Origin: an uncultured Gammaproteobacteria bacterium
GTDB taxonomy: Bacteria > Patescibacteriota > Patescibacteriia > Magasanikbacterales > UBA922
DNA length: 64,000 nt
Assembly: GCA_964550845.1 (NCBI GenBank)
Contig: CAZKAD010000003.1
Coordinates: 447-64,446, forward strand
Direction: 5' to 3'
The notes beneath the pieces were generated by a model. That model saw only the letters and a program-made list of their open reading frames with translations. It searched no databases and was not told the origin of the DNA. The translations under genes were made by a program, and so were the position numbers. Below, one piece after another: positions 43,497-63,405 of this stretch; the stretch's first letter is position 1; every line of letters starts with the position of its first letter.

Positions 43497-43517
43497 TTTT
43501 CGAAATTTTCGAAGTAA

Positions 43518-43880
43518 TTACAATGGATGAATATAAACTTTTGAATCTGGGGAAAGTTTCGGAATTGCTTGAATCAATTGAACAGTTCCCTTTGAATTGG
43601 CGAGAGGAAAACAGAAAATAAATTCAGGTTTCTCAGATAACATTTGGTTGTTCCTTCGTGGACCAGCTGATGCTCCATATTTACTCCATTCAGGAAAATA
43701 GCGTTTAATCTCCCATTTATGTTCGACTGCAAATTCCTCTGCAAATGTATCAGCTCCTCGACATCCTCCTGAGAGGAGAGTTTTCGAGACATTCGGATGT
43801 TGTCGATCAAATTCGAGAAGAACATCCCAAATTACTTTCTTGTCTGCCCATTCACGAGAGCCGGAAACACAAATTTTCAT
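43518..43880 (-). CDS. DUF2493 / SLOG (YspA-related) domain protein
   Basis: ICVSGSREWAD...LLSGGCRGADTFAEEFA...PEWSKYGASAGPRRNNQM fits the DUF2493 pattern (GSR.W...GGa.GAD..Ae.wA...W..Gk.AGp.RN..M). Confidence 0.55.
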   Translation of the reverse strand: MKICVSGSREWADKKVIWDVLLEFDRQHPNVSKTLLSGGCRGADTFAEEFAVEHKWEIKRYFPEWSKYGASAGPRRNNQMLSEKPEFIFCFPLANSKGTVQLIQAIPKLSPDSKVYIHPL

Positions 43881-43910
43881 GATTAATCGGTTCTTTATGA
43901 CGTTTAATTT

Positions 43911-43934
43911 TTTGATATCAAGAATGATATCAAA
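43911..43934. terminator. Perfect 10-bp hairpin TTTGATATCAagaaTGATATCAAA downstream of the SWIB gene
   Basis: Direct reading. Preceded by GACGTTTAATTTTTT. Confidence 0.55.
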
Positions 43935-44032
43935 AATTCAGTTTTTATTTGCAAGGATTAAAATGTACATTCAAGTTATTTTAAGACTAATATCAAGACT
44001 AAGACTAAGAAATTTATTCAATTATAAGATAT

Positions 44033-44881: not shown

Positions 44882-45083
44882 TTCGAGTGAAGAGCGAGGG
44901 TTTTATTTCTAATCCGTTACCTTTAGATCAATTTTTTTGTAGTTTTGTTATTAAAGTGATAACTGAGACTCTTTTTAATTTAACCGGTTCGAAAAGTTTA
45001 AAAAAGAGAAAAATAAACAACCCCGATTAAATCGCGGATAAATTAATGATTCAAAATCGCCTCAAGTGAGCAAATAAAAAATA

Positions 45084-45091
45084 AAAATTGA
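45084..45091 (+). promoter_or_regulatory. AAAATTGA octamer upstream of 45194..46504
   Basis: Exact octamer about 100 nt upstream of the ATG, in a divergent intergenic region. Confidence 0.4.
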
Positions 45092-45193
45092 TTATCTATT
45101 TTTTAATTTGAAGAGAAACCCTCCTTCTTAAAGATCCCAAGTATTTCAAACGCTAAAAACTTTCTCTAAATCGAAAACTTCATTACTTTCAAC

Positions 45194-46504: not shown

Positions 46505-46551
46505 AATGATAAAACGATAAAATGAAAGTAGATAAACGAAATAATTAAAAA

Positions 46552-46575
46552 TTCTTCACCTCTCAAGGTGAAGAA
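46552..46575. terminator. Perfect 9-bp hairpin TTCTTCACCtctcaaGGTGAAGAA between convergent genes
   Basis: Direct reading. Located between the stops of 45194..46504 (+) and 46585..47886 (-). Confidence 0.6.
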
Positions 46576-46584
46576 AAATTATTC

Positions 46585-47886: not shown

Positions 47887-47924
47887 TCAAAGGACTTTTG
47901 AGATTGGTTTTGAGATTGAGATTG

Positions 47925-47968
47925 ATTAAACGCCAGAGGGCTGGTTAAACGCCAGAGGGCTGGTTAAA
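47925..47968. promoter_or_regulatory. Two tandem copies of the conserved palindromic element with a variant stem (TTAAACGCCAGagggCTGGTTAAA x2), in a divergent intergenic region
   Basis: Direct reading. The flanks are conserved and the stem differs (GCCAG/CTGGC) but still pairs, which is a compensatory change. It lies between the starts of 46585..47886 (-) and 48040..49707 (+). Confidence 0.55.
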
Positions 47969-48039
47969 GATTTCTTTCTTCTTCTAAAGACAAAGAGTCA
48001 ATTTTTTGGTACTTACTTTTACTTCCTTAACATCAACAA

Positions 48040-49707
48040 ATGCCTCGTCGATCGACTCGACTTCATTTTCGAAAACTTGAAAATGGCGAAGTCATTCTTC
48101 TGAATGATAATCCAAATAGCGTCGAAGATGACGCAATCGAAGTTGTGACACGTGGAGGAAAGAGAAAACTAATTTTTGATGACGAAGATCAACCAGTTGA
48201 AGTTGATGTTCCTCCATTAGCCCAATTGAATCCTCCAGTTTCAAATATTCAAAAGAATGAGTTTGATCCACTTGAACAAACTTATATCGACTTTTACACT
48301 CTTGTAATTGGGGACGAGAAACTTTCTCGCAAACAAAGAAAATTACTCCGGGGTTATTGTAAAGAAGTGATTCAAGAGCAACCATCAGCTTTAAAGTTAC
48401 TTACGAGTAACATCTTTCATTCAGATAAATTAAAGTTACTTGAAATGCTTCGAGTGTTGAAGGATAAAGATCCGGACTCAGAAGATTATCTTGATTACAA
48501 AAAAGTTTATCAAACTAAATTTGAATCTGCACAGCGAAATTTCGATGAATTGTTAAGTCTACCACCTGATCTACAACGATCTCATACCGAAGAAAAAGAT
48601 CGAATCGACAAACTTGCCCAAAAGAAATCTTTTTCATTTCAAATCATCAATCTTCCTGTTGATGATGAGACTAAACGTTTCATCTATCAACGATATATTC
48701 ACTATGAACGAATGGGTAATAGTGATGATGAAAAGCCAAAACTTGAACAATGGTTGAACACAGTCTTGCAGATTCCGTATAAAGTGTTTATTGATCTTCC
48801 TTCAGAACGAGAATTTTGTTTGCGTAATTTTCGAGATATTCTTGATCGGGAAATTTATGGCATGCAAGTAGTCAAAGAGCAACTGTTGGTCTTTTTGAAT
48901 ACCAAATTGACCAATCCGCATGTTCAGGGATCCAATCTTGCTCTCCTTGGTCCTCCGGGAGTAGGTAAAACAAAAATTGCTCGCTTAATGGCGAAGGCAC
49001 TCAATCTTCCTTTTGCTCAAGTTCCTTGCGGCGGCCTTGAATCAATCGATCGTATCCGAGGTCATTCATATACTTATATTGGTTCTCAACCAGGTGAAAT
49101 AACTTCAGCCGTCCTTTCAATGAAAGCAAACAATGGGGTTATGTTCTTTGATGAATTTGAAAAGATTGGAAGTGAAAAAGCTCATCTGACTAATAGTTTG
49201 TACAATATTTTTCTCCATATTCTTGATCCTGAGCAAAATGGGAACTTTCATGATGATTACCTCGGGCTTGAAATTCCGATTGATCTTTCTCGAATGTGGT
49301 TCATTCTTGCAATGAATAGTTTACCAAATTTTCAACCTTTGATTGACAGATTGTATGTTGTTCAAGTTCCAGCATATACAATTCGAGAAAAGATTATTAT
49401 CGCCCAACGACATTTAATTCCGGAGATTTTCGCTGCATTGAAACTTGATCAAAATAGTATCATATTTACCGATGAAATTATCTCTCGTATTATTCATCAC
49501 TTTAATCTATCCAGTATTCCGGGTTTGAGACAATTAAAGAATATTCTTCGAGAGATTGTGCTAAAGATTCATTTCCTTCAAACGTCAAATCTTCAAATCT
49601 CTTTTCAATTGAAGAATATGAAACTTCCTTACAAACTTCAAGAAGAAGATCTTGATAAACTTCAATTAAATGTGAGTAAAGAAGATCGCCCTTCAATGTG
49701 GACTTGA
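48040..49707 (+). CDS. Lon-type AAA+ ATPase module with no protease domain
   Basis: [54 protein letters not shown]...[12 protein letters not shown]...LHILDPEQN...LAMN..., compared with E. coli Lon [55 protein letters not shown]...LFLLDEIDKMSSD...LEVLDPEQN...FVATSN. The ORF stops about 30 aa after the AAA+ alpha-subdomain and no Ser-Lys protease domain follows. Confidence 0.8.
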   Translation: [555 protein letters not shown]

Positions 49708-49769
49708 AACTCGTCCTTCACCGTGGACTTGAAACTCGTCCTTCACCGTGGACTTGAAACTCGTCCTCG
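49699..49769. repeat. Three tandem copies of a 25-nt hairpin repeat (TGGACTTGAAACTCGTCCTTCACCG); the first copy overlaps the last codons and stop of the Lon-like gene
   Basis: Direct reading. Each unit carries the inverted repeat GGAC..GTCC. The array is followed at 49770..49777 by AAAATTGA for the Pol X gene. Confidence 0.8.
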
Positions 49770-49822
49770 AAAATTGATTAAATTTCTGATTTTTGTTAAT
49801 CAACAAAAATCAATTAATAGTA

Positions 49823-50770
49823 ATGTCCTCAAAGAAAATCGAATTTGAGAGAGGAGTTCCTCGAACTGAGTTTCTCTTTCAACTTGAAGCTCTGACAAGA
49901 GCTGCGAAAGGATTTCGAAAAAGAGCATTCACCAACGCAATTGAATCACTGAAGGGAATCTCAAACGAACTCCTCTATTACAACGATCTTCATGAATTGA
50001 AGGGATTTGGAGAAGGAATGTTAAATCGGTTTCTTGAATATCAGTCAACTGGCCAACTCAAAGAGCTAATTTTTTCTGCCGAAGAACAAGAACGCAAGCG
50101 AGTACTCGATCTTTTTCAAGGTATCTATGGAGTTGGAGAAGTTACTGCAACTGTTTGGTATGAGAAAGGTTTGCGTTCACTTGAAGATTTGATTAAATTC
50201 AATATTCCCTTGACCGATCATCAACGAGTTGGATTGTATTATTACAATCAAATTAATTCGCGAATTGAGCGAAAAGAGATTGATGAATTTAACCAACAAC
50301 TTCAAAAGAAAGTTGTTGAGTTTAATCAAGAAAATAAGGTACAAATTGAAATGAAAATATGTGGTAGCTATCTTCGAGGTAAAACGACTTCTGGTGATAT
50401 TGATGTAATCGTTCGAGAAAAGAATGATCAGTTACCTTGTTTAATTGATAGTCTATTGAAATATTTATATCCACTTGTTCGACATATTCTTGGTCAAGGT
50501 AATGTTAAAATTTTGACTCTTGGAGGATCAACAGATATCCATCGAAGAATCGACTTTGAACTCGTTGAGAATGCAAGATGGCCATTTGCCTTATTGTATT
50601 TCACTGGTTCAAAAGATTTTAATCGACAAATGAGAGAGATTGCAAAAAAGAAAGGTCTTCTTCTCAATCAACGAGGCTTATTTTACGGCAATCAAGAATT
50701 TCTTTACAAAGAAGAAAAAGATATTTTTGATGCCCTCGGAATGACTTACTTATCTCCTGAACAACGATAA
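49823..50770 (+). CDS. DNA polymerase family X (Pol beta-like)
   Basis: GIYGVGEVTATVWYEKGLRSLEDL (HhH), CGSYLRGKTTSGDIDVIV (nucleotidyltransferase motif; compare Pol beta GSFRRGAESSGDMDVLL) and FALLYFTGSKDFNRQMR. Start taken at MSSKK (49823), 46 nt downstream of AAAATTGA. Confidence 0.85.
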   Translation: MSSKKIEFERGVPRTEFLFQLEALTRAAKGFRKRAFTNAIESLKGISNELLYYNDLHELKGFGEGMLNRFLEYQSTGQLKELIFSAEEQERKRVLDLFQGIYGVGEVTATVWYEKGLRSLEDLIKFNIPLTDHQRVGLYYYNQINSRIERKEIDEFNQQLQKKVVEFNQENKVQIEMKICGSYLRGKTTSGDIDVIVREKNDQLPCLIDSLLKYLYPLVRHILGQGNVKILTLGGSTDIHRRIDFELVENARWPFALLYFTGSKDFNRQMREIAKKKGLLLNQRGLFYGNQEFLYKEEKDIFDALGMTYLSPEQR

Positions 50771-50795
50771 CCTCCTTCTCCTTTCGAGGAAAAGG

Positions 50796-50803
50796 AAAAT
50801 TGA
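50796..50803 (+). promoter_or_regulatory. AAAATTGA octamer upstream of 50838..51749, preceded by the hairpin TCCTTTCGAGGA at 50779..50790
   Basis: Exact octamer 35 nt upstream of the ATG. Confidence 0.5.
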
Positions 50804-50837
50804 TTTATTTTGGAAACAAACGGGGAAAAATAAATCA

Positions 50838-51749
50838 ATGACGTCAACTCTTCAGTTTCCGAAGCGACTCGAAGAACATGGAATTAAGATTGTTTTTGCG
50901 ATCGAGAAACCAATCGTCACAATAAGTCATGACAATGTAAACGATTTTACAGTTGACTTTACCGATGAAAAAGCAAGTTTAACCAATCCTAAAGGACGTT
51001 TAACTCGAGGTTGTCGTAAAGAGACAATGAATAAGGGCGAAGAAGGCGATTGGTATTTTCTTCGTTCAAACAATGGTATCTATACAATTCGCAGCAGATG
51101 TGATTGGCAAGTAATTGATCCAAATGGTAAGCCAATATTCAAGCTGGATCATTTTCCTCAACGATGTCCCACAATCTCTCCTTCTGGAAGATATATTTCT
51201 TACGTGATATGCTCTCGTGTCATCGAAAAGACTAAAAGTATACTCATTGATCTTCAAGATCAAAAGATTTTTGAATATATAGGATTACCGGCTAACTTTT
51301 CACCAGATGAAAAGTATTTTGCTTATCCTCTTGTGAATGAGGTGTTTGTTTGCACTACTAAAGATAAGAAGCTTGTTATCCAACATTCTTTTTCAAAATA
51401 CAATCCTCACATTAACACTGTTCTTTTGTCTAACACTCATATCGTCATTATTTGGAGAGGCTTGCATGGAACTATAAAAGTAATGAAAATTGGTGAAAAA
51501 AATGTCACACATACTGATCAATCAGCATATTACCATATTCACTCTCATCTTTATTCTGATGGAACTCTATTATCTGTTGGAACAGATGAAATTAAAAAGA
51601 TCAAGTTTAATTTTGAAGAACCGAAGATTGAATCAGTTCCTCCAAATATCGAGATGAATCAAAAAGACGATTCGGTTCCTTCAAATATCGAGATGAATCA
51701 AAAAGACGATTCGGTTCCTCCAAATATCGAGATGAATCAAAACGTTTGA
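50838..51749 (+). CDS. Hypothetical protein (possibly a beta-propeller) with three C-terminal PPNIEMNQKDDSV repeats
   Basis: 303-aa ORF. 3x 39-nt repeat at 51640..51745. Confidence 0.6.
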   Translation: MTSTLQFPKRLEEHGIKIVFAIEKPIVTISHDNVNDFTVDFTDEKASLTNPKGRLTRGCRKETMNKGEEGDWYFLRSNNGIYTIRSRCDWQVIDPNGKPIFKLDHFPQRCPTISPSGRYISYVICSRVIEKTKSILIDLQDQKIFEYIGLPANFSPDEKYFAYPLVNEVFVCTTKDKKLVIQHSFSKYNPHINTVLLSNTHIVIIWRGLHGTIKVMKIGEKNVTHTDQSAYYHIHSHLYSDGTLLSVGTDEIKKIKFNFEEPKIESVPPNIEMNQKDDSVPSNIEMNQKDDSVPPNIEMNQNV

Positions 51750-51758
51750 ACATTTTAA

Positions 51759-51800
51759 TCATCCTTTGGGATGATTAAACGTCCTTTGGGACTGGTTAAG
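51759..51800. terminator. Hairpin ATCATCCtttGGGATGAT followed by the conserved element TAAACGTCCtttGGGACTGGTTAAG between convergent genes; its TTA is the stop of 51796..52785
   Basis: Direct reading. Confidence 0.65.
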
Positions 51801-52785
51801 TATAAAACTCTTTACGAATTTTCTTCGGAAAAAGATCTTGTAAAGTATCAACTAATTCGGAGTCGTGTTCAATCAAACATTGTAAACATTCTCGTTTATC
51901 TATTTTATTTGCACGAAGTAATATTTCGAGTTCATCTGGATGTTCGATTAAGTGTTCAGAAAATGGACATTCAAGAAAGATAAATAAATCAAGGGAGAAA
52001 TGATATCTCAATATCTTTTCCCAAAGAGGATGACTCTTCGAAAAATATTCAAAGAAAATTTCAATCTGAAAACCACCAAAAGAATTGAAGGAAGTAAACC
52101 TGGTTAAAGACAAATTCCATCTTTGATTAATGTCATCAAGAATTTGATCTCCTGGGAAATATTTCTTTATCATTTGATACCATCGGTGATAATCAATAAA
52201 AGTAAAGTTTAGCGATTGCAAAAAAAGTAGGAAAATTTTCGCCTCGATACTAACTCCATATTCCAAATAAACTGTTCCAGCTTGATGAATATCTTCGGCT
52301 AGATTCATAAAAATAAATTTAATATCATCAAACGAAAGTACATCCTGTTTTCGTTTATACTTCAAGAGTAAATTAAGCAAGTGATATTTTTCTGATACAA
52401 TTACATATACTGAGTATTCGTGCAAAAGTTTAAATCCAGAAATGCAATAATTATTTACCAATGAAAAAATATAATCTATCATTTCCGGTGAAGATAAATC
52501 GATGCAATGATAACTTGTATGCAAAGGTGACCAATAAAATGCGGTTATGTCTCCGCGGATATATTTTTGTGCCGTTTTAATAAAAAGATCATCTGGGAAA
52601 TAACATATCAAACCTCTTGGATAAATGGCTTGTAATTTATCTGCTTGGGAGAGATCAACAAAATTGGTAATTAACAAAAATAATCTTGGATCATACAAAT
52701 CTTTTGTTAAAAAAGAATTCCAATTTGTCTCTCGATTAGATAAACCTGACGCAATTAATTGAATCAAACGGTCAGAAATTGACAT
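51796..52785 (-). CDS. Member of the 'FLTxDLYDPRLL' family, with the motif at the N-terminus
   Basis: N-terminus MSISDRLIQLIASGLSNRETNWNSFLTKDLYDPRLFLLITNFVDLS... Confidence 0.65.
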   Translation of the reverse strand: MSISDRLIQLIASGLSNRETNWNSFLTKDLYDPRLFLLITNFVDLSQADKLQAIYPRGLICYFPDDLFIKTAQKYIRGDITAFYWSPLHTSYHCIDLSSPEMIDYIFSLVNNYCISGFKLLHEYSVYVIVSEKYHLLNLLLKYKRKQDVLSFDDIKFIFMNLAEDIHQAGTVYLEYGVSIEAKIFLLFLQSLNFTFIDYHRWYQMIKKYFPGDQILDDINQRWNLSLTRFTSFNSFGGFQIEIFFEYFSKSHPLWEKILRYHFSLDLFIFLECPFSEHLIEHPDELEILLRANKIDKRECLQCLIEHDSELVDTLQDLFPKKIRKEFYT

Positions 52786-52814
52786 TTCTTAAAGGATTCA
52801 TCCTTTAAGAGAAA

Positions 52815-53429
52815 TTATTTATCTTTGGTCAAGAACTTTGTTTTACCTTTCGTCGTAAGGGCAATAAATTCGATGCCAAATGCGACAAATTTTTGCATTG
52901 CTTGAAGAGAGTCATATGCTTCGATGTGAATCGATAAATTTTGATTCGGAATAGGAGTATCAAAAGAAAACTTCATCGGTGGATTTTCAATATAGGCGAG
53001 TAAATAATCAGTTTCTTCCAATGTTGATGATTTTGTGGTCAATCCCATTTTGACATCTCGAATTGACCATGGAATAGAATGTGTTATTTCTCGAATCAAT
53101 TGGAAAGATTGTGCTTTCGGAATTGTAATTTTTTGTCCAGGTTCAAGTAAAAAATTTACTCTGACTGTGACACCATCAAGATTTTTCTTTTCCGCATCTC
53201 CAAGATAGATATCAAGTAGTGAAATGTAAAAATCTCTACCCATTAAAAGAGGAAGTTCGAAGAAATTCCATTGTTGATTCGCACATGATCGGATTTGACT
53301 AAGAAGATTCTTAACGGAAAGAGGGAAACTAATCGGATTGCATGAAAATTTTCTACCGTATAAAGATAAGTCTTTTTCTTCATTCGGTAAATCCCAGAGT
53401 CGAATAATCTTTTGAGATGAATTATTCAT
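52815..53429 (-). CDS. Hypothetical protein
   Basis: 204-aa ORF. Confidence 0.55.
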   Translation of the reverse strand: MNNSSQKIIRLWDLPNEEKDLSLYGRKFSCNPISFPLSVKNLLSQIRSCANQQWNFFELPLLMGRDFYISLLDIYLGDAEKKNLDGVTVRVNFLLEPGQKITIPKAQSFQLIREITHSIPWSIRDVKMGLTTKSSTLEETDYLLAYIENPPMKFSFDTPIPNQNLSIHIEAYDSLQAMQKFVAFGIEFIALTTKGKTKFLTKDK

Positions 53430-53449
53430 TTGAATGATTCGATAAAGTG

Positions 53450-53507
53450 TTTAACTAGTCCCGAAGGACGTTTAACCAATTCAAAAAGTCCCGAAGGACG
53501 TTTAACC
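53450..53507. promoter_or_regulatory. Two tandem reverse-orientation copies of the conserved element (TTAACTAGTCCcgaaGGACGTTTAACC; AGTCCcgaaGGACGTTTAACC)
   Basis: Direct reading. Located between the stop of 53527..54255 and the start of 52815..53429 (both minus strand). Confidence 0.6.
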
Positions 53508-53526
53508 GTTTCTCTTCAAAGACTTC

Positions 53527-54255
53527 TTAAACCTCACTCAACTTAACATTCTCATTGCCTTCAAATCCAGTAGCTCCAATTGCGACACAAGAAAATCGGC
53601 TTGTCTTACCAGGACCGACTTTAATATTCCGATTACCAATCAAAGTACAACGAATCAAGTGAATCTCTGAATTTTGGTCAACCGAGAGCAAATCTTGATC
53701 GTCACTTGACAATTTGCAATTGTCAAAGAAGACAAATGCCGATGAATTTTTCACGCAGTCGATAAACGAACACTTCTCAGCAATCCATTTTCCAGAGATT
53801 TCCGATTGCCCTTCAAATTCATTATTATCAAGGAAGCCGTCTCCTTTGCCTTGAAAAGAGGTGATGGACGAGTTTTCAAGCGATAACATACTTTTTTCTT
53901 CTGTGTCGAGATGATCGACACACAGATAACTTGCTTGCCGAGAACTCGCTTGATTAAAGATACATTTATTAACTGCCACATTTTGAATGATACCAGTTCC
54001 ATTGACTGAAAGTTGATCAATTCGAATCATTGATGCTACACCTTTCCCCTCAATGTGAATTTGATCTGGAATGGTAACTTTTTCTTCATATTTACCCGGA
54101 TAAATTTGGATGATATCTCCAGGTTTCGCCGCCGAACAAGCAGCTTCAATTGATTGATATTGATCTGGTACAATTAAATTTTTGCTCTGGGAGCTTGGAG
54201 CTTTTGCAAAGAATTGCGTCCTTTGGTGCAAATCAACGAGACGAAACGCCATCAC
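53527..54255 (-). CDS. Hypothetical protein, possibly beta-helix-like
   Basis: 242-aa ORF whose periodic N/C/S-rich segments suggest a parallel beta-helix. No catalytic motif was identified. Confidence 0.5.
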   Translation of the reverse strand: MMAFRLVDLHQRTQFFAKAPSSQSKNLIVPDQYQSIEAACSAAKPGDIIQIYPGKYEEKVTIPDQIHIEGKGVASMIRIDQLSVNGTGIIQNVAVNKCIFNQASSRQASYLCVDHLDTEEKSMLSLENSSITSFQGKGDGFLDNNEFEGQSEISGKWIAEKCSFIDCVKNSSAFVFFDNCKLSSDDQDLLSVDQNSEIHLIRCTLIGNRNIKVGPGKTSRFSCVAIGATGFEGNENVKLSEV

Positions 54256-54350
54256 ACTTTTAGAGAATAAGAATTTTAAGAGAAGATTTTTAATGAAAAG
54301 ATTTTTGAACTACCGAAAGGAAGTGGCTAGTTTTATCTCAAATACACAAG

Positions 54351-54376
54351 TTAAACGTCTCTTCAAGACTGGTTAG
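54351..54376. promoter_or_regulatory. Conserved element TTAAACGTCTCttcaAGACTGGTTAG immediately 5' of the histidine-kinase ATG
   Basis: Direct reading. The element ends 0 nt before the ATG at 54377, in a divergent intergenic region. Confidence 0.5.
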
Positions 54377-56182
54377 ATGCCTCTTCGCAAACTGGCTTTC
54401 TATGTGAATCAACTTGTTTCGACCTCTCTAAATGATTTCTTCTTGAATTGTCTCAAGGAAATTCAAGAACAGACAAAATCTAATTCGGCGAATCTTCGGG
54501 TCTTTAACGGTCCGACAATTCAAACCTCAACAGATTCAATTGAAACAAATATTCATTCGGAGAAAGCAATCATTACGCGATCTATTTATTTTGACGAAAA
54601 AGAATCATGGATACCCTTATTATCTGGAGATAAAGTCTGTGGTCTAATTGGCTTACTCAGTCCAAAAGAGCGTCCAAATCAGTTTGTTGAACAACTAATC
54701 AACTTAATTGTTGCTCGAATTCTATCGATCAAGAAAGAATTACCAAATGATTCTTTTATCTCGAACATGAGTCATGAATTGAGAAATCCTTTGAACGGGT
54801 TACTGGGATATCTTCAAATTCTTGAATCATCGGGGTTAAATTCTGCTCAACAAGGATATCTCTACTCGGCACAAAAATGCGGTTTGAGTTTAATTCGAGT
54901 CGTCAACGATATCTTAGATTACTCAAAACTAATGTCAGGTAAAATGAAGTTAAACGTACAAATTACCAATTTGTATGATTTACTTGGTTTTGTCGAAGAA
55001 ACTCTCCATATTTCAATCCAAGAAAAAGGACACACTTTTACCCTCTTTTTTCATCCAGATGTCCCAAAGATGATTTTAACCGATTCTCAAAAATTAGCTC
55101 AGATTTGTATTAATCTGCTAAGTAATGCAATTAAATTCACACCGGCGAAAGGAAAAATTAACTTTGAAGTAAATCTGATGATCAAAGAAAAAGAATATCT
55201 TATCTTTAAGATTGCCGATACTGGTTGTGGCATTTCAAAAATTCAATCGGATGAATTGTTTCGAACTTTTACTCGACTTCATCATTCAAGAGAAGAGGGA
55301 ACAGGGCTTGGATTAGTTATTTCGAAAAAACTAACCGAATTGCTCTCAGGAACTATTCGTCTTGAAAAATCTTCATCTGAAGGTTCGGAATTTGTTTTTG
55401 AAATTCCACTTCAGAGAGCTCAAGAAGTTCGAAGTTCTCAACTTGGATTTAAGAAAGAAGTTTGTTTATTTGTTTCAGAGAAAGTTCAAACAGAATTAAA
55501 TCCACTGCTATTACGATGGGGAATGAAAGTATTTAATGTTCAATCTTTTTCAGAACTTTTAACAATCTTGAGCAGTTATGTATATGATTTTGAACTTGTC
55601 ATTCTTGAAGATGGAGAAAAAGAATTTGAACAAAATTCGAATAAGATTTGGGAAATTTGTCCAAAAATTCCAATTATACATGCCTGTAAAATCTTACCTC
55701 AAAAGAAGAGTGACTCATATTTTCATCTGCTTAATTTTACTCCAACAGAATTGTACAATTGTATTGCAAGGGCCTTGGAAAATTCTCTCTATTTGAAAAA
55801 GAAAAATTCGATTCGACTTGATCTGAAGAAAAAGATTTTGATTGCTGAAGATGATCCAAGTGGAAGGGAAATTTTGTCTAGATTACTCCAATCAATTGGT
55901 TTCTCGGAAATTGATTGTGCCGAAGATGGTCTTCAAGCCTTGAATATGATTCAAAAGAAAAGTTATTCTTACTTATTCATTGATTTGAAAATGCCGGTTA
56001 TTGACGGGTATGAAGTAATTACCACAATAAATAAGAAACCAAATAAGACAATGAAATTAATTTGTGTTTCAGCATCTGTTACAGATGAAGATAAACAATT
56101 TTGTCAAAAAGCATCTGTTCCATTTCTTGCAAAACCGGTTCAATTTCGAAATCTACAAGACTTGATGGTTTCATTGAGTTAG
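54377..56182 (+). CDS. Hybrid sensor histidine kinase: N-terminal sensor region, HisKA, HATPase_c, a degenerate middle domain and a C-terminal receiver (REC) domain; soluble
   Basis: H-box MSHELRNPLNGLLGYLQIL. N box LLSNAIKFT. G1 DTGCGI. G2 GTGLGLVISKKL. Receiver: ILIAEDDPSGREIL...LFIDLKMPVIDGYEV...LAKP. No TM helices were seen. Confidence 0.85.
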   Translation: MPLRKLAFYVNQLVSTSLNDFFLNCLKEIQEQTKSNSANLRVFNGPTIQTSTDSIETNIHSEKAIITRSIYFDEKESWIPLLSGDKVCGLIGLLSPKERPNQFVEQLINLIVARILSIKKELPNDSFISNMSHELRNPLNGLLGYLQILESSGLNSAQQGYLYSAQKCGLSLIRVVNDILDYSKLMSGKMKLNVQITNLYDLLGFVEETLHISIQEKGHTFTLFFHPDVPKMILTDSQKLAQICINLLSNAIKFTPAKGKINFEVNLMIKEKEYLIFKIADTGCGISKIQSDELFRTFTRLHHSREEGTGLGLVISKKLTELLSGTIRLEKSSSEGSEFVFEIPLQRAQEVRSSQLGFKKEVCLFVSEKVQTELNPLLLRWGMKVFNVQSFSELLTILSSYVYDFELVILEDGEKEFEQNSNKIWEICPKIPIIHACKILPQKKSDSYFHLLNFTPTELYNCIARALENSLYLKKKNSIRLDLKKKILIAEDDPSGREILSRLLQSIGFSEIDCAEDGLQALNMIQKKSYSYLFIDLKMPVIDGYEVITTINKKPNKTMKLICVSASVTDEDKQFCQKASVPFLAKPVQFRNLQDLMVSLS

Positions 56183-56242
56183 AAATTGATGTTTGCGAAG
56201 AAAAAAGTTGATGGGTAGTCAATCAGAAATTTGATTTTTGAC

Positions 56243-56297
56243 AAAAAACCAAGCTTAACGACGTCTAGTTATAGACCGAATTAAGCTTGGTTTTTTT
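56243..56297. terminator. Strong hairpin with a 15-16 bp perfect stem (AAAAAACCAAGCTTAA...TTAAGCTTGGTTTTTTT) flanked by an A-run and a T-run; bidirectional terminator-like
   Basis: Direct reading. Located between the stops of 54377..56182 (+) and 56406..57203 (-). The loop contains a nested GTCTAgttaTAGAC. Confidence 0.65.
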
Positions 56298-56405
56298 CGA
56301 TTTTTCAATATTTTTGACCGTTTTTCCCGACATTTCCGTTCAGGTTGATCTATTGTTAATTTCTCTTTCTTTCAAGAAAGAAAAGTTATTTGACTCTCAC
56401 TTTCG

Positions 56406-57203
56406 TTACTTTTCCGAAGATTGTTCTCCTTTCTCATCAATTGATCCATTTGCATCATCGGCGCCCTCTTGAATAACGGAGAGAGGAGTTGAAGAAATTT
56501 CTCCTGGGGTTTGGAACATTTTCATTGCAGTTCCCACCAGTGCATGAATATCCAGTTGTCCGGCTGAAGCTTGTTGCTCCATATTTTTCACCATCCTCGC
56601 AAATGCGCCATTTTTCATTAATTTAGTTGCAATTGCGATCGGATTACCAGCATTTTCGTCCATCATTGGAGAAATCTCCGCAATCATGTCATGAACTATT
56701 TTTTCTTCGTTAGTCGGCACTGGAGATGATTCGAGAGTTGTCAATAGTTCTCTTGCTTGACTGTCAGGGAAGAGAAGAGTTGTAATTGTCAAAAGATGAG
56801 TCCAAACTGCATCTGCAGTTTTTGGATCGGACTTCTCGAGAATCAAGTTAATTGGAAGATAGATTCGATCGCTATATTTGAGAGTTTGATCAACTGGCTT
56901 TCTTTTTGCAAGGATATCTTTCATATTTCTTACAATGTATTCAGAAAAACAGTTAATATGTTTGAGTACAATTTCAGGCTTAACCACTCCAGGATTAACA
57001 TAAACAAGTAATCTTGCGTAAAGATCGAGAGGACGTTGATGGGTTCCAATTCGGTTTGAACCTGAACCGGAGCCAAAACTCTCACTCAAAGCATTTACAA
57101 ATTCGGAAATAGCCGTAAAGGCAAGCTTTTGGGTATTTGTCAGCATTCTCTGTTTGTAAGAAACAGAGAATACTTTAACCAATTCTTCAGAATGTTTAAC
57201 CAT
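56406..57203 (-). CDS. Hypothetical protein
   Basis: 265-aa ORF. The conserved element GTTTAACCATCCttttGGACGTTTAAC (57194..57220) overlaps its start codon. Confidence 0.6.
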   Translation of the reverse strand: MVKHSEELVKVFSVSYKQRMLTNTQKLAFTAISEFVNALSESFGSGSGSNRIGTHQRPLDLYARLLVYVNPGVVKPEIVLKHINCFSEYIVRNMKDILAKRKPVDQTLKYSDRIYLPINLILEKSDPKTADAVWTHLLTITTLLFPDSQARELLTTLESSPVPTNEEKIVHDMIAEISPMMDENAGNPIAIATKLMKNGAFARMVKNMEQQASAGQLDIHALVGTAMKMFQTPGEISSTPLSVIQEGADDANGSIDEKGEQSSEK

Positions 57204-57265
57204 CCTTTTGGACGTTTAACAAATTGTTCATTTATTTTTACTCCGAAGAGCAAAAATTATCTAAA

Positions 57266-57745
57266 TCACTTAAATAATCGTTGAAGATCGTTATCATTTG
57301 TCACCCATGGAAGCAACCCGTAAGATTGCTGATGATCATAGATAGTCGCATTGTCTCCAATTAGATAACTGCCTTGATAAGACCAGTTCTTTGTTGAGAC
57401 TGAGAATTCAATTGGTTGATCAAATCTCTCAAAGTTGACTTTTTTGTCAAGGATCGTATTGAATTCTTGAACCGCCGATGATGAAAGTTGATTAAATGAG
57501 AGAGATCGAACGGCTAGTTTGTTTCCTTCAATGCGAGCAAACAGACAAACATATCGCTTAAGCACATCATACTCTCTTCCAATCACTTTTGAGAAGATGA
57601 ACTTTTGAGTTCCGTTCGAATTTAAGTTTAAGTTTAACAAATTGCAACTTTTCTCTGCATATTCGGCATTGGTAACATAGCAGCCATGCATAAGATAGTT
57701 ACCTTTGCTTTCAAGAAAAATTGCATAGAGCTCCATCTCGATCAA
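57266..57745 (-). CDS. Hypothetical protein
   Basis: 159-aa ORF. TCAATTTT lies 38 nt upstream (57783..57790). Confidence 0.55.
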   Translation of the reverse strand: MIEMELYAIFLESKGNYLMHGCYVTNAEYAEKSCNLLNLNLNSNGTQKFIFSKVIGREYDVLKRYVCLFARIEGNKLAVRSLSFNQLSSSAVQEFNTILDKKVNFERFDQPIEFSVSTKNWSYQGSYLIGDNATIYDHQQSYGLLPWVTNDNDLQRLFK

Positions 57746-57811
57746 GAAAATTCAATATTTTTGAAATAGTCAAAATTTTAATTCAATTTTCCAAAGTTAC
57801 TTTTCACTCTT

Positions 57812-58810
57812 TTAAGTCTTCGCCAATTCTTCAAGATGACGAAAGTTGTTTGATATTTCTGCCAACATGGTCATATTATCGAATAGTAATGTATCAACTG
57901 ATAAAGCAAGTTCATCCAAATTTTTTGTAGTTTCAAGAATACTTCGCACCAAATCCTTCAAAACATTTTCTTGTTTTTGAATTTCTTGAGCAAGTTTACT
58001 TTTATCTTCAACCACTTCGATCTTTTGTTTTAGTGATGAAAGCAAAGCCGATGTTTTTTCATGAGCTATTGTTAATTTTGCGTGTTGTTGAAGATAAAAT
58101 CTCTTCTTTTCTAAAATCTTTTTACTTGAAGTTAGAATGTTTCTTTTCTGTTCCAACATATTTTGAATCTTAGTTGTTTCGACTTGTTGATTATGGTTCA
58201 AGATTTCATAGAATTGAGAAAGAATTGTTTTAACTCCTTGTGCAACACGAGGTTCTTTGTAAAAGCTTTCCATTGAAAGCGTCAAAAGAATTCTTCGTTT
58301 CTTTGAATTACAATTTGTAATGAAATAACATTGTTCTTTGTTTTCTCGATCAATGACCATACAATCTCCATCAAAAAGTACAGGCTTATATTCAAGAGTT
58401 CGAAAACAAAGTTTGAATCTTTTCATCTGCCGAAGTAAAGCAGCAAATTTATTAACGCTTTTATTCTCTTCGCCCTTGATTGAAATTTGCCTATCATAAA
58501 GATCTACAAATCCAGATTCATTTTGAAGAAATGTGTCAAGATGATCTATTGATTTGTATTTTTGTCTCAATTCAGGCTCGTCGACTCCTTGTATAAATTT
58601 TTCACTCATTTCATCCTTTGGAAGTAACTCAAATTCATATTGGAGTTTCTTTGATGGAATTTTATGCTTACTGGGTACAGAAATTAGAATTGAAAAAGCC
58701 GAATCTAAACTGACAATTTCAAAGTAACGATAGTATCCATCAATAGTGTAATATTTATCAACCAAAAATCCATTTGATTCAAACAATTCAACGCACTTAT
58801 CTACGCTCAT
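57812..58810 (-). CDS. Hypothetical protein with a C-terminal coiled coil
   Basis: 332-aa ORF. The C-terminal half is rich in heptad-like K/E/L (...LAQEIQKQENVLKDLVRSILETTKNLDELALSVDTLL). Confidence 0.6.
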   Translation of the reverse strand: MSVDKCVELFESNGFLVDKYYTIDGYYRYFEIVSLDSAFSILISVPSKHKIPSKKLQYEFELLPKDEMSEKFIQGVDEPELRQKYKSIDHLDTFLQNESGFVDLYDRQISIKGEENKSVNKFAALLRQMKRFKLCFRTLEYKPVLFDGDCMVIDRENKEQCYFITNCNSKKRRILLTLSMESFYKEPRVAQGVKTILSQFYEILNHNQQVETTKIQNMLEQKRNILTSSKKILEKKRFYLQQHAKLTIAHEKTSALLSSLKQKIEVVEDKSKLAQEIQKQENVLKDLVRSILETTKNLDELALSVDTLLFDNMTMLAEISNNFRHLEELAKT

Positions 58811-58844
58811 TGTTTCTGGAATGAATCTTTTTGATCAATTTCTG

Positions 58845-58886
58845 GCGTTTAACTTGTCTGAAAGATGTTTAACTCGTCTAGATGAG
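58845..58886. promoter_or_regulatory. Degenerate pair of the conserved element (GCGTTTAACttgtctgaaagatGTTTAACtcgtctagatgag) in a divergent intergenic region
   Basis: Direct reading. The flanks are conserved and the stems are weaker. Confidence 0.4.
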
Positions 58887-58961
58887 ATTAAATTTTTAAT
58901 TTGTTTTATTAAAAACAAACAAAACATTCGAAAAGACCCAAACAATTGAAATAACCAAAAC

Positions 58962-59249
58962 ATGTCTGACGATTTGATTGCAAATCTTCCAGATGCAAAG
59001 GCAAATCCTCAAGATCGAGCTGCACTGGCTTCTCTCCTCATCGACGATAAGCCATCTTCACAAGATGACTCTTTTCGAAAAGCAATCATTGTAGCAGTAC
59101 TTGTCATGTTGTTTAACAACAGTGAAGTCACAAGTTTACTTGAAAAGAATATTCCCCCAATTCAAGGTTCTCCTCTCGGAATGCTCGTGGTCAAAGGCGG
59201 ACTGGCTGGATTGATTTTCTTTTTGATTTCTTTATTCAATCGATCATAA
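58962..59249 (+). CDS. Small membrane protein (hypothetical)
   Basis: 95 aa with hydrophobic segments (AIIVAVLVMLF; GLAGLIFFLISLF). Confidence 0.4.
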   Translation: MSDDLIANLPDAKANPQDRAALASLLIDDKPSSQDDSFRKAIIVAVLVMLFNNSEVTSLLEKNIPPIQGSPLGMLVVKGGLAGLIFFLISLFNRS

Positions 59250-59281
59250 AGAAAAGGTTAAACATCTTTCCCCGATTTAAA

Positions 59282-59782
59282 ATGGAACCATTGTTGTGCC
59301 ATAATTTTGAAAGTTCTTCAAAAAGCTTAAGTATTCATTATTCAATTTCAAAAGAAAAGATGAAGACATTTTTTCCTCCTCTCTTTCCAACCATTGAAAA
59401 GGAGATGAAAGCCAATTTTCTCTTTCGATTAAACTTTGACGTTCATTTTGATCGTCTTTTGACTCGGCTTCGGGCAGATGTTCGAAATGGATTTGAACAG
59501 TTAACAATTCGATTTCCTTCTCAAAATGGAAATTTCTTTTTGTTGAGAGAATTTGCAGATCAAATTCATACAGGCTTGCGGAGTTTAGGAAATAAAATAT
59601 TTCTAGTCCAAATCACTCCAATCGCCTGGTATATTACCGTCGAAGAATCTGAGCATCGGGCAATTTCTTTGCAGCCTCTTTCATCTGAATTCGAGCATCT
59701 TGATGAATATCCATCTTCGTTTGTAGATTTATTGAAGAAGACAAATCAATACCGGGCTTATCAATCGATATATAATGAATAA
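59282..59782 (+). CDS. Hypothetical protein
   Basis: 166-aa ORF, convergent with the family trio. Confidence 0.5.
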   Translation: MEPLLCHNFESSSKSLSIHYSISKEKMKTFFPPLFPTIEKEMKANFLFRLNFDVHFDRLLTRLRADVRNGFEQLTIRFPSQNGNFFLLREFADQIHTGLRSLGNKIFLVQITPIAWYITVEESEHRAISLQPLSSEFEHLDEYPSSFVDLLKKTNQYRAYQSIYNE

Positions 59783-59809
59783 TTTCCTTACCTCGAGAGG
59801 TAAAGAACA

Positions 59810-60862
59810 TTAAAAAGAGCAAATCGTTATGAGTAATCGAGGATCGTACAAATCTCGAAGCAAAAAGTCCATTAAAATGTCTTCTTGTGACAATCCAGCA
59901 CAGACTAACATGTTTAACATCTTTTGTTCCACATAGATGATTAGGTAGATATTTTTGCGGAAATTTAAAATGTCAATGTACATTCCTTCTTTTTGTTGAT
60001 CTGTCAAAAAGGTCCACTGAGGCATATTTTTTCGAATATCATTATTGATATTGAACGATGTCTTTTCATATCTATACATTGCACAATCATCAAGTACAAA
60101 AAGAGGCAAATCGATATTCGGATATTCTCGAATTGAAGTCAGTGTTTCTGGTTCTTTGTATCCGGGACATCCAATGACTGGAAGTTCGTCGAGAAATTGA
60201 ATTGACGGGAGAAAAAGGATAAATTGGAGTGCTTCAATATCATGGATAAATAATAAATAAACTTTTGTTTTAACGGCGCTCCAAAACTTTAAGGTCGTAA
60301 ATAAATTTCCATTGATTTTTTCATCTGAATCGCCTTGTATGGCTTGTTGAGAAAAAAGAGTTCGAGTGGAAGGTGTATATATTCCTCTTGTTATTTTCAT
60401 CGAAAGAGACGCGACCATTTTTTCTGATAAAATTTTTTCTGTGATCGGTCGATATTCTGTTGCACACACCCTCATCCTGACGCAAATTGGTATATTCAGT
60501 TGATCAAATAACTTCAAGATATTTGCTGGAGCCACGAGGAAAGTTTCTTTTTGATTGTTTGCATCAATCGAGATGATCCATTCTGGCGAATATTCTATCG
60601 ATTTGACTGAAATTAATTTTCTTTGAAAAATACTCTCAATTAATTTCTGAAATTCATCAATGTAAGATTCATGTGAAATCTGACTAAAAATCGAAAGAAT
60701 TAAATCGACTTCTTGATCTGAAAGTCGATTAATGATTGGATTTTCTTTCCCGAGGACGTCAAAGTTGTGGCGAACAGTACTATGATCTTCATCTATATTA
60801 ACTTTCGTTAACGCTGAACAAAAGAATTGATGAAACAAAGATAACTTTTGTCTAGAATTCAT
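59810..60862 (-). CDS. Member of the 'FLTxDLYDPRLL' family (tandem trio member A; F-box-like motif at the C-terminus)
   Basis: N-terminus MNSRQKLSLFHQFF...LSDQEVDLILSIFSQISHE. C-terminus ...LNMLVCAGLSQEDILMDFLLRDLYDPRLLITICSF. Confidence 0.7.
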   Translation of the reverse strand: MNSRQKLSLFHQFFCSALTKVNIDEDHSTVRHNFDVLGKENPIINRLSDQEVDLILSIFSQISHESYIDEFQKLIESIFQRKLISVKSIEYSPEWIISIDANNQKETFLVAPANILKLFDQLNIPICVRMRVCATEYRPITEKILSEKMVASLSMKITRGIYTPSTRTLFSQQAIQGDSDEKINGNLFTTLKFWSAVKTKVYLLFIHDIEALQFILFLPSIQFLDELPVIGCPGYKEPETLTSIREYPNIDLPLFVLDDCAMYRYEKTSFNINNDIRKNMPQWTFLTDQQKEGMYIDILNFRKNIYLIIYVEQKMLNMLVCAGLSQEDILMDFLLRDLYDPRLLITICSF

Positions 60863-60946
60863 TTATTTGTTTATTTAATTGGCACTTCTGGAGACAATTA
60901 AAATCAATTTCCTTACCTCGAGAGGTAACGAAAAATCACTGAGCAT

Positions 60947-61963
60947 TCAACAAAAAGGAAATTCTTCAAAGAAACTGTCATCTGAAAGAGCAAAACAATT
61001 AATTAAATTCAAGATGCGAGGGTCGAATAAATCCCGTGTAAGAAAGTTGTGCCAAGTTCCACCCTGAAATAAACCCGTGCAGATAATCATATTCAACATT
61101 GCTTGTTCATCACAGGTAATTAAATAGATACTGTGGTAATAGTTCTCAATATCATTCTCGGCTTCCCGTAAAGCTTCAAGATCTATCCAACTTGGAATCA
61201 AATTTCCTGCCCAAAATGAAAAGGGTTCTTCGTCATAATCAGGATTAAGATATACAAGCGGGCGGTTAACAAGAGTTTGCCGCTCGACTGATTTAATCAA
61301 ATATGATTGATCAAATGTTATTCCTCGTTTAGCAAAGATTCTCTTCAGTAATGTTGGCGAAGGTAGTTTTAGAATAGCTTCAAATGCCTCTTTACTCTGA
61401 GGCGCCAAAATATAAGTTTTGCTTTTTACAATACTCCAAAACAGTAAAGTTTCAGCGTTAGTTTCATTTAGTTTACTTTCCGAAAATACATCTTCAATTG
61501 TATTTGACCAGTTAATTTGGATAACAGGAGGCAAATCAATTTCTTCGAACAATCCATCGAGCTCTCGTAAATTGTCTTTTACTTCTTGGAAATCAAAAAA
61601 GACAGAGGTTTGAATGTTTAATTCTCGAATGATCGAATCTGCATTCAATTTGACTGGAACGTGTTTATACATATGACGTGTTTCAACACAAACATATTTT
61701 GATGATCCAAAATATCTTTGAAATCCTATAGGCTGCTTGTTGATTAATGCGTCAAGCAATAAACCGACATCATTAGAAATCGATTCTTCTCTTGAAATCA
61801 TCTTAAAGATCGAGATGATTGAAGCGACTTCTTGATCAGTCAATTGTTCAACAATTGGATGAGGTTGGAGCATATCATCGAGTTGGAAATGAGCAATCTC
61901 TTCTTCCGTTTCATACGGAAGAAAAAGATGGCAAATTGTGCTTAATTTTTGTCTGAGATTCAT
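60947..61963 (-). CDS. Member of the 'FLTxDLYDPRLL' family (tandem trio member B)
   Basis: Start set at the internal MNLRQKLSTICHLF, which is homologous to the paralog N-termini and removes the overlap. C-terminus ...LNMIICTGLFQGGTWHNFLTRDLFDPRILNLINCF... Confidence 0.7.
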   Translation of the reverse strand: MNLRQKLSTICHLFLPYETEEEIAHFQLDDMLQPHPIVEQLTDQEVASIISIFKMISREESISNDVGLLLDALINKQPIGFQRYFGSSKYVCVETRHMYKHVPVKLNADSIIRELNIQTSVFFDFQEVKDNLRELDGLFEEIDLPPVIQINWSNTIEDVFSESKLNETNAETLLFWSIVKSKTYILAPQSKEAFEAILKLPSPTLLKRIFAKRGITFDQSYLIKSVERQTLVNRPLVYLNPDYDEEPFSFWAGNLIPSWIDLEALREAENDIENYYHSIYLITCDEQAMLNMIICTGLFQGGTWHNFLTRDLFDPRILNLINCFALSDDSFFEEFPFC

Positions 61964-62012
61964 TGCAGTCCTCCAATAAAGATAAAGAGTAAAATCAATT
62001 TTGCTCTTCTTC

Positions 62013-63074
62013 TTAAATCTCACCAAAATTGCACACATTTGAAATACTAAATTGACTAATTAAAATCAAAACCCGAGGATCGTACAAATCTCGAAGAAGA
62101 AAATTACTCAACTTCCCTTCTTCAAATAAACCGAAACATACGAGATTGTGTAACAATGCGTGTTCAGTGCAAGTAATATAATAACTATTCAAGTAAAAAT
62201 GAACAACATCGGCGTAAATTTCATTATTTATCTCCTCATTTTCGGATGAAACGGGAATTTTCTTTCTCAGATTAAGATGAATGGATGAAAAATCCTTTTT
62301 GTTCTTTGTATAACAGAGATAACAGAGATAAAAGAGAAGATGATTATTATCCGGATATTGTTCGATTGCTTCGAGTGTGTCAGACTGCTCACGAATAAAC
62401 TTTTTGAGTATCTTTGGTGAAGGCAACGAGATTATCGATTCAAAAGCAATACTTGAGAGAGGCATCATTAAATAGACTTTTGATCGAAGAATGCTCCAAA
62501 AGAGTAAAATTTTTTTGTAATTCTCGAGATCAAGATCAACATTGGATGACGGAGAATGATAAACTTGAATCATTGTTGGTAGGCATATTTTATTCGATAA
62601 AATTTTTCCTCGATTAAATGTAGTTTCAAACGGATTTAAATATTTAAGACGCATGAATGTTCGAACATTTAACTGTTCTAACAGTGGACATACTTGTTGT
62701 TTTACATCAACTTCATCCTGCGCGTCAGATGTTTTGATGCTCATGTTCGTGTATTGAATACGAAAGTGATGATAGTCGGTTATTTGACATTCTTTTTTAC
62801 GAATAAGAGCTTCAATAAACAATCCGATATCTGACACATTTCCATTCTCAAAATCAATCATTTCAATCGCTTGAATAATGAGAGAAACTTCATGATCACT
62901 TAGACGTTCCAGACAATTCTCGAAAGTGGTTAAACTTCCCGGAGTACGTTTCGATTCCAGAAATTCGTCGAAACGAAAGTAATGGCCATTGTGTTTGATA
63001 CGTTGTTGAATATTCCGAGTCACATAAACTTGACAAAAAATAGCTAATTTTTGTCGCAAAGTGAAATCAGCCAT
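62013..63074 (-). CDS. Member of the 'FLTxDLYDPRLL' family (tandem trio member C)
   Basis: N-terminus MADFTLRQKLAIFCQVYV...LSDHEVSLIIQAIEMIDFE. C-terminus ...LHNLVCFGLFEEGKLSNFLLRDLYDPRVLILISQF... Confidence 0.7.
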   Translation of the reverse strand: MADFTLRQKLAIFCQVYVTRNIQQRIKHNGHYFRFDEFLESKRTPGSLTTFENCLERLSDHEVSLIIQAIEMIDFENGNVSDIGLFIEALIRKKECQITDYHHFRIQYTNMSIKTSDAQDEVDVKQQVCPLLEQLNVRTFMRLKYLNPFETTFNRGKILSNKICLPTMIQVYHSPSSNVDLDLENYKKILLFWSILRSKVYLMMPLSSIAFESIISLPSPKILKKFIREQSDTLEAIEQYPDNNHLLFYLCYLCYTKNKKDFSSIHLNLRKKIPVSSENEEINNEIYADVVHFYLNSYYITCTEHALLHNLVCFGLFEEGKLSNFLLRDLYDPRVLILISQFSISNVCNFGEI

Positions 63075-63111
63075 TCTTTATTTCATTCGGATAAAGAATA
63101 TTAATTCAATT

Positions 63112-63405
63112 TTACCATAAGAAATAGTAAGAAAACCATGCTCTCGAATAGAGCTTAGTAATGCATTTGGTTCCATCTTTACATCTCATTCCTCCATGAC
63201 GAGCTCGATAACTTCTCCTTCTAACAGGGTCGTTATGGTCTTTGTGTTTCCAGATTCCACCGCCAAGTGAAACTGGAACTGAATCTCGATAATGTTGGTA
63301 ATTTTTGTTTCCGAATGATACTCTCTTTCCATTCGGCAAAATAGCAGTGTATTTGGCGTCGCCTGATCCGCGAACAAAACGAATACCTTTCGGAAGACGG
63401 GGCAT
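63112..63405 (-). CDS. Small basic protein (hypothetical)
   Basis: 97 aa, rich in Gly/Arg/Lys (KYTAILPNGKRVSFGNKNYQHYRD...GGGIWKHKDHNDPVRRRSYRARHGG). Confidence 0.45.
   Translation of the reverse strand: MPRLPKGIRFVRGSGDAKYTAILPNGKRVSFGNKNYQHYRDSVPVSLGGGIWKHKDHNDPVRRRSYRARHGGMRCKDGTKCITKLYSRAWFSYYFLW

Follow-up and report, generated by a model that had tools for sequence, protein, structure and literature searches.

Cullin-RING ligases are recruited through a few known boxes (F-box, SOCS/BC-box, BTB and DCAF H-box), which viruses often copy or mimic. Mimiviridae-like viruses are also known for expanded host-interaction repeat families, among them ankyrin, BTB-Kelch, F-box/FNIP, leucine-rich repeat (LRR) and WD40 proteins. 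Chloroviruses encode a viral Skp1, A039L, together with ankyrin proteins bearing a non-canonical C-terminal Skp1-interaction motif (PMC7019647), and the MGF505 proteins of African swine fever virus (ASFV) carry a SOCS-box-like motif (PMC13342108). The locus described here lies in a stretch of 64,000 nucleotides (the window) of contig CAZKAD010000003.1 in assembly GCA_964550845.1, in which three adjacent minus-strand genes, t1 to t3, end in a shared segment called the DPR module. The module represents a new domain family, one with an architectural role already known, and the trio, three genes of a Mimivirus-like virus of the Nucleocytoviricota, is shown to go back to ancient duplication and to be maintained under selection. 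Like the Mimiviridae-like repeat families, the carriers of the module are arranged in tandem arrays of paralogs, many of them orphans, with faster evolution than that of core genes and, in part, early-type promoters; they differ in being defined by a shared terminal module which those described families are not known to carry.

Open reading frames (ORFs) are present at all three places where an earlier note on this DNA had put them: t1 at 59810..60862 (minus strand, 350 aa), t2 at 60947..61963 (minus strand, 338 aa) and t3 at 62013..63074 (minus strand, 353 aa). In t1 an orphan alpha/beta body is followed by a C-terminal DPR module whose end is the stop codon, and t2 and t3 share this architecture. 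The modules, all on the minus strand, occupy 59813..59935 in t1 (residues ~310-350; E 5.5e-14 with the module hidden Markov model, HMM), 60977..61123 in t2 (residues ~281-329; E 5.2e-17) and 62037..62177 in t3 (residues ~300-346; E 1.6e-15). The start of t2 was placed at the ATG at 61963 (MNLRQKL), in agreement with a 338-aa homolog, P0002; a longer t2 ORF reaching to 62038 was rejected because it overlaps the upstream gene. The shared N-terminus, internal block and C-terminal module noticed earlier were all recovered by end-to-end alignment, as an invariant N-terminal R-Q-K-L, an L.D.EV..I......I..E block and a C-terminal C.GL...FL.RDL.DPR.L..I..F block. Pairwise BLASTP gave 28-31% identity (E 4e-26 to 2e-43), and the bodies stripped of the module still matched one another at E 6e-12 to 3e-25, so the trio are whole-gene paralogs and not mere sharers of a motif. 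The full-length family comprises 7 proteins among 5.8 billion, with one more distant member. A model of the trio body obtained with AlphaFold2 (AF2; predicted template modelling score, pTM, 0.65) had no match when compared with known folds.

L012, a related virus with 85-95% amino-acid identity, retains the trio in unchanged order as part of a fully syntenic block, and the triplication therefore predates the split of the two viruses; the tandem duplication suggested before is thus borne out. The t1 ortholog in L012 is 85% identical. The ratio of nonsynonymous to synonymous substitution rates (dN/dS) against L012 is 0.26 for t1, 0.18 for t2 and 0.30 for t3, next to 0.08 for the neighbouring histidine kinase gene; the trio genes are kept by selection yet relatively fast-evolving. 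Across the syntenic block 51796..63405, dS itself rises from 0.07 in t3 to 0.14 in t2, 0.29 in t1, 0.42 in 51796..52785 and 0.73 in the histidine kinase, and this tenfold spread among neighbouring genes suggests that the trio region recently underwent recombination or gene conversion.

The DPR module is defined by L..ΦΦ..GL, a linker of 5-25 residues and then W..FL.[RKQ].LYDPRL[FL]..I..F, together with a match to the A7 profile. Its logo reads L-x-x-[LIV]-[IVL]-x-x-G(99%)-L ... W(82%)-x-x-F-L(98%)-T-[RKQ]-G-L-Y(98%)-D-P-R(100% each)-L-[FL]-[LI]-x-I-x-x-F. Six copies in the window agree with this definition, with A7 profile E-values from 5.5e-14 to 1.7e-19. Three belong to other, unrelated genes, namely 27351..27857 (plus strand, 168 aa; C-terminal module ~27690..27833, E 4.7e-17), the ORF 10573..11247 (minus strand, 224 aa; C-terminal module ~10582..10740, E 9.3e-16) and 51796..52785 (minus strand, 329 aa; module ~52645..52779, E 1.7e-19). 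Six modules had indeed been counted before, all as C-terminal, but the copy in 51796..52785 is N-terminal. The core [DE]L[YF]DPR appears 6 times in the six-frame translation of the window, against 0.008 expected from composition. Conservation is seen at the protein level: nucleotide identity among the copies is no higher than amino-acid identity, the third codon positions at identical residues match in only ~49% of cases, and the invariant Arg is spelled by five codons. What is under selection is therefore the peptide, not the DNA, and a DNA-level repeat as the source of the motif was ruled out by the randomised synonymous sites.

AF2 modelling of the module of 51796..52785 with a 110-sequence alignment gave three helices at a predicted local distance difference test score (pLDDT) of 90. 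Helix 1 corresponds to L..ΦΦ..GL and helix 2 to W..FLT; [RK][GDE]LYDP forms the turn, so that the [RK]xLYDP segment stands ahead of helix 3, which is RL[FL]..I..F. The DPR module is thus a unit of ~45 aa with three helices that is predicted to fold autonomously. A Pfam scan of 110 modules and the six full window proteins gave no match to the module at E<=10, and the module profile had no match among PDB sequences. Full-text literature searches for the motif and for the source accessions returned nothing relevant, the sole match to DLYDPR being an unrelated streptokinase paper. The new motif family announced in the earlier note is thus real. Residue choice ahead of the core ([DE]-LYDPR or G-LYDPR) was considered as a signature of Skp1 co-evolution and rejected, since the other Skp1-bearing virus has Gly; the difference is a sub-clade marker only. 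In P0031 (L004:3813-4235) a partial second core copy (RLYDPRLFLVIFAFALF) directly follows the first, a tandem duplication of helix 3.

Beyond the window, the module profile retrieved 351 clusters from 1.84 billion (1.84e9) representative proteins at E<=1e-3, of which 37 reached E<=1e-10; one of its top matches, P0045 (1,688 aa, 21 'stretches'), was set aside as a simple-repeat false positive. The module is shown to be portable: it usually sits at the very C-terminus of its carrier and is C-terminal in 130 of 176 proteins, while 20 have it at the N-terminus, another 20 internally and 6 as a stand-alone unit, and it is combined with at least 68 mutually unrelated partner clusters. Partners recognised by Pfam are nearly all LRR (15/139; 16/101) or WD40 (~5/139; 7/101). 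A metagenome scan added 72 module loci, and all database copies are metagenomic or environmental. The carriers fall into two groups, one of low guanine-plus-cytosine (GC) content with some relatives of the window and one of high GC without relationship to it; those in other lineages form dense tandem arrays of up to 8-12 modules per 10 kb. Genuine bacteria and archaea among the GTDB genomes are without the module, and the bacterial matches in GTDB were dismissed as chance matches lacking it or as mis-binned viral contigs. The DPR module is shown to be found only in uncultured giant-virus-like genomes. A search of IMG/VR for the module and for the viral Skp1 described below returned nothing.

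One such case is CALMMZ01, a GTDB species representative filed as 'uncultured bacterium' SRR5676435_bin.113 (GC 0.34), which carries at least 16 DPR-module genes (loci L085, L087-L090, L092-L094, L096, L099 and L101) and has a 38,003-nt contig with a match to L058, the viral contig that bears Skp1; evidently, a giant-virus genome has here been binned wrongly as bacterial. A true module is also present on a 2.6-kb 'Candidatus Babeliales' contig, L098, which may be mis-binned too. In L004:1-10543 (ENA ERZ650304 NODE_20), seven LRR paralogs have the LRR body joined to the module, at a homologous position, across a 46-52-nt GT...(pyrimidine-rich)...CAG segment. The lengths of these segments modulo 3 (1,1,1,2,2,1,0) predict the frame change that is observed in 7/7 paralogs. 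They look like tiny spliceosomal-type introns of a compact, ORFan-rich giant-virus-like or protist genome, and on this reading of the sequence the module is shown as an exon of its own in the L004 lineage; many database 'proteins' of 83-110 aa would therefore be second exons mis-called as genes. Similar intron-like segments between LRR body and module were noted for L005, L008 and L013.

The viral nature of the window is seen from its genes, which include a PBCV-1-type minor capsid protein P9, Pol X, an SNF2-type helicase, two protein kinases, collagen-like proteins, a hybrid histidine kinase and DUF2738, DUF5767, DUF5832, DUF5891 and DUF5754 proteins. In Mimivirus a 'hairpin rule' places a palindromic hairpin after stop codons, and the palindromes of the window resemble that. 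Perfect palindromes follow the stop codons of 5/6 module genes and of most genes inspected. The octamer AAAATTGA, which is the Mimivirus early-gene promoter element (PMC5294985), has 23 sites in the window (2587..63113) against 24 expected, with no overall enrichment; 15/23 of them lie 10-110 nt upstream of the start of a same-strand ORF, where the background is 4.8% (p = 6e-15). Both Mimiviridae-type signals, the positioned octamer upstream of starts and the hairpin after stops, are thus present, and from these together with the gene content the window derives from a Mimivirus-like member of the Nucleocytoviricota, as the giant-virus origin supposed in the earlier note would have it. Scans for sigma-70 promoters and intrinsic terminators were uninformative for a eukaryotic virus, save for flagging the hairpins.

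Within the trio, early-promoter-type octamers AAAATTGA on the minus strand begin 39 nt upstream of the ATG of t2 (61995..62002) and likewise 39 nt upstream of that of t3 (63106..63113), and a variant with one mismatch, GAAATTGA, begins 49 nt upstream of the ATG of t1 (60904..60911, minus strand). An exact AAAATTGA at 11293..11300 lies 53 nt upstream of the ORF 10573..11247, and another AAAATTGA at 2587..2594 lies 65 nt upstream of the Skp1 gene; the early-type element accompanies the Skp1 gene and 4/6 module genes. A perfect palindromic hairpin at 59784..59807 (minus strand) comes directly after the t1 stop, and its TACCTCTCGAGGTA core is found again after the t2 stop at 60914..60927. The 20-nt palindrome TTACCTCTCGAGGTAAGGAA following these two stops (59784..59807; 60908..60930) has 2 sites against 0.11 expected and is absent after t3; two readings are a hairpin for 3' end formation that was duplicated and a leftover of the duplicated unit.

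The Skp1 gene just mentioned (2660..3277, plus strand, 205 aa) offers a candidate hub for the module. Its product matches Pfam Skp1 (PF01466) at 38.6 bits (cut-off 22.3) and Skp1_POZ (PF03931) at 24.7 bits (cut-off 21.9), its residues 31-183 align to residues 4-149 of human SKP1 (E 5e-11), and 31 PDB Skp1 sequences match it; judged by sequence, it is a genuine member of the Skp1 family. An ortholog with 51% identity is encoded by L058, a relative more distant than L012 and a contig of the metagenome-assembled genome CALMMZ01, in which Skp1 thus coexists with the module genes counted above. The C-terminal tail is near-invariant between the window virus and L058, unlike the cellular tail. No canonical F-box was found in the window, either by Pfam scans of ~60 ORFs or with a six-frame F-box HMM, and 868 kb of module-bearing loci, with 255 modules, contained one weak F-box match. 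In L058 a 302-aa DPR-module gene (L058:6128-7036) is inserted between homologs of window 6048..6782 and 6928..10542, 3.4 kb from Skp1, where the window has a 145-nt intergenic gap (6782..6928); the comparison shows gain or loss of a module gene between related viruses.

A possible mechanism is that the DPR module acts as a docking box, the variable body binding a target and the invariant module joining the protein to one common partner. The likeliest partner would be Skp1, whether the viral copy (2660..3277) or the host's. The carriers would then be substrate receptors of an SCF-type (Skp1-cullin-F-box) ubiquitin ligase and would send host proteins to degradation early in infection, and the module would be a functional analogue of the F-box, not its homologue. 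A parallel may be seen in the C-terminal Skp1-interaction motif of chlorovirus ankyrin proteins and their viral Skp1 A039L. Docking of a receptor family on Skp1 or another common hub is the best-supported mechanism because it brings together an invariant terminal box, LRR, WD40 and orphan bodies, multigene expansion, early promoters and a resident hub. Since Skp1 lies in the same window, an F-box-like function is plausible even though F-box ancestry is unsupported. The docking-box model is held tentatively, at a little under even confidence, and its Skp1-specific form is rather doubtful. A fuller proposal, which also seems somewhat unlikely, is that the module arose independently of the F-box as a docking domain for Skp1 (or another cullin-RING adaptor) and, with a viral Skp1 whose F-box-gripping tail is remodelled (KKYPEYFAWLK), makes up a private SCF-like ligase specific to the virus. 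Through it, dozens of interchangeable receptors in each genome, with LRR, WD40 or orphan bodies, would reprogram the turnover of host proteins at an early stage of infection.

Several points weigh against the docking-box model and its Skp1 form. Binding of a partner by the module is putative, and no likeness of sequence, profile or specific fold was found between the module and boxes that bind Skp1, Elongin C or cullins. When a full trio protein was modelled with AF2, the module came out at low confidence, and it may pack on the body of its own protein. Giant viruses often have LRR and WD40 multigene families, irrespective of what these do. The co-occurrence with Skp1 is so far seen in one viral clade, and the unrelated high-GC lineages had no Skp1 in the 306 kb sampled, where host Skp1 would still be available. 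Finally, the window is 64 kb of a probably much larger genome, and canonical F-box genes elsewhere in it could be the real partners of the viral Skp1.

The earlier note read the module instead as an F-box or PRANC, which would have to be a true but strongly diverged one, sharing ancestry with the cellular F-box and binding Skp1 canonically. This reading has points in its favour: like the F-box (PF00646/PF12937) of FBXL and FBXW proteins, the module is a terminal unit of ~45 residues with three helices in the AF2 model, it is fused to LRR or WD40, its carriers form large tandemly expanded families and Skp1 is encoded in the same genome, in fact in the same window. The best local hhalign match sets DPRLFLLI..F on the first F-box helix, LPxELLL.I. 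The profile comparison named beforehand as the refutation test, however, gave a probability near background, 0.96% for the F-box (and 0.20% for the SOCS-box), where background spans 0.3-1.5% (F-box against SOCS-box 1.5%, reversed module 0.3%), split-half positive controls reach 98.6-99.9%, and a circularly permuted module scores 1.2-1.5% against the F-box. At E<=10, 0/110 modules matched F-box, F-box-like, F-box_4/5, PRANC (PF09372) or SOCS_box (PF07525), nor did any of the six full window module proteins match the F-box (PF00646 or PF12937); in that library, reference F-box and SOCS-box sequences, confirmed by their library match, gave E 3e-6 to 2e-39, with eleven F-boxes at 3e-6 to 1e-34. 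The logo has no conserved L-P at the start of helix 1, nor the L-P-x-E start of the F-box, while the G-L, W..FL and Y-D-P-R signature is absent from F-boxes. The sole invariant Pro stands 10-12 residues before the end of the module, which in t1 is the end of the protein, so an F-box begun there would lack two of its three helices; the hydrophobic spacing after this Pro also differs, and on that spacing the earlier hand alignment fails. Furthermore, the module is mostly C-terminal, whereas cellular F-boxes are mostly N-terminal to the repeats. Homology to F-box or PRANC is thus not upheld and is very unlikely. PRANC of poxvirus ankyrin proteins and the motif of chlorovirus A682L/A607R (PMC7019647) are likewise virus-encoded C-terminal boxes on repeat proteins, and the chlorovirus box, standing alongside a virus-encoded Skp1, is the closest analogue in architecture and logic when compared by description only; 0/110 modules match the Pfam PRANC model, and ankyrin is outside the 25 most frequent of 80 partner families. 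A SOCS-box or BC-box-like module recruiting Elongin B/C with Cul2 or Cul5, or else a different adaptor of BTB fold, in place of Skp1, is improbable as well, though less so. WD40 domains are found with SOCS boxes too, and LRRs can occur on BC/Cul2-box receptors. Like the SOCS box (PF07525), the module is a terminal, usually C-terminal, three-helix box of ~40 residues on WD40 and other binding domains, the L-x-x-x-Φ-x-x-x-L spacing of helix 1 recalls the BC box, and, as with the SOCS-box-like motif of the ASFV MGF505 proteins (PMC13342108), the carriers are multigene-family proteins of a large DNA virus. Nevertheless, beside the background hhalign value and the lack of any Pfam SOCS_box match among the 110 modules, the Cys position of the BC-box [STP]-L-x-x-x-C-x-x-x-[AILV], which takes a small residue (Cys, Ala or Ser), holds Ile, Val or Leu in the module, there is no L-P-x-P cullin box, and SOCS boxes have no equivalent of the invariant Gly or of the YDPR turn; the adaptor encoded by the virus is Skp1 and not Elongin C, and no Elongin B/C homolog was seen in the window.

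A more serious rival of the docking-box model takes the module out of the ubiquitin system altogether and makes it a targeting, packaging or oligomerisation tag, serving for instance delivery to the viral factory or virion, or self-association. Such a tag is on the unlikely side: the module is predicted to fold alone as a compact domain, unlike a linear signal, and its hydrophobic stretch is too short and too charged for a membrane anchor. An early-type promoter on 4/6 genes suits host manipulation better than late virion assembly (PMC5294985), and the LRR/WD40 bias with a resident Skp1 suits a system of receptors and hub. That the motif is no functional protein feature at all, being due to chance, to a DNA-level repeat or mobile-element scar, or to annotation, has a negligible probability. 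Many of the database 'proteins' with the module are fragments of 48-110 aa, and some are true gene-calling artefacts; yet second exons from LRR genes that are spliced account for the short ORFs, and the excess of copies over composition, the randomised synonymous sites, D-P-R invariance across 351 clusters, dN/dS below 0.35 and the pLDDT of 90 all speak for a protein feature.

If the docking-box model is correct, a non-homologous box, apparently confined to giant viruses, would be added to the recruitment boxes of cullin-RING ligases, and hundreds of giant-virus ORFans would receive a function at once. The sequence G-L...W..FL...LYDPRL would then serve as a handle for host-manipulation genes in metagenomes. 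As candidate hub and receptors lie side by side in one genome, the system is directly testable. Even with a partner other than Skp1, the module remains a well-defined new domain family; its 351 clusters are all unannotated, and it is a marker of a giant-virus clade which IMG/VR lacks and which is in part mis-filed as bacteria.

Other genes of the window deserve mention. The plus-strand gene 6928..10542 encodes a 1,204-aa fusion of NADAR, a cap guanine-N2-type methyltransferase and a VP39-like 2'-O-methyltransferase (PARP_regulatory), and its L058 counterpart consists of two adjacent ORFs, 7108-8136 and 8164-11007. A collagen-repeat cluster, an SWIB/MDM2-domain protein and a fasciclin-domain protein, all eukaryote-like, are encoded at 14162..15926, 20006..22171, 44033..44881 and 4160..4687. 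Two-component signalling proteins are unusual in viruses; the hybrid histidine kinase at 54377..56182 (plus strand) combines HisKA, HATPase_c and a receiver domain and is 88% identical to that of L012, at the dN/dS of 0.08 given above.

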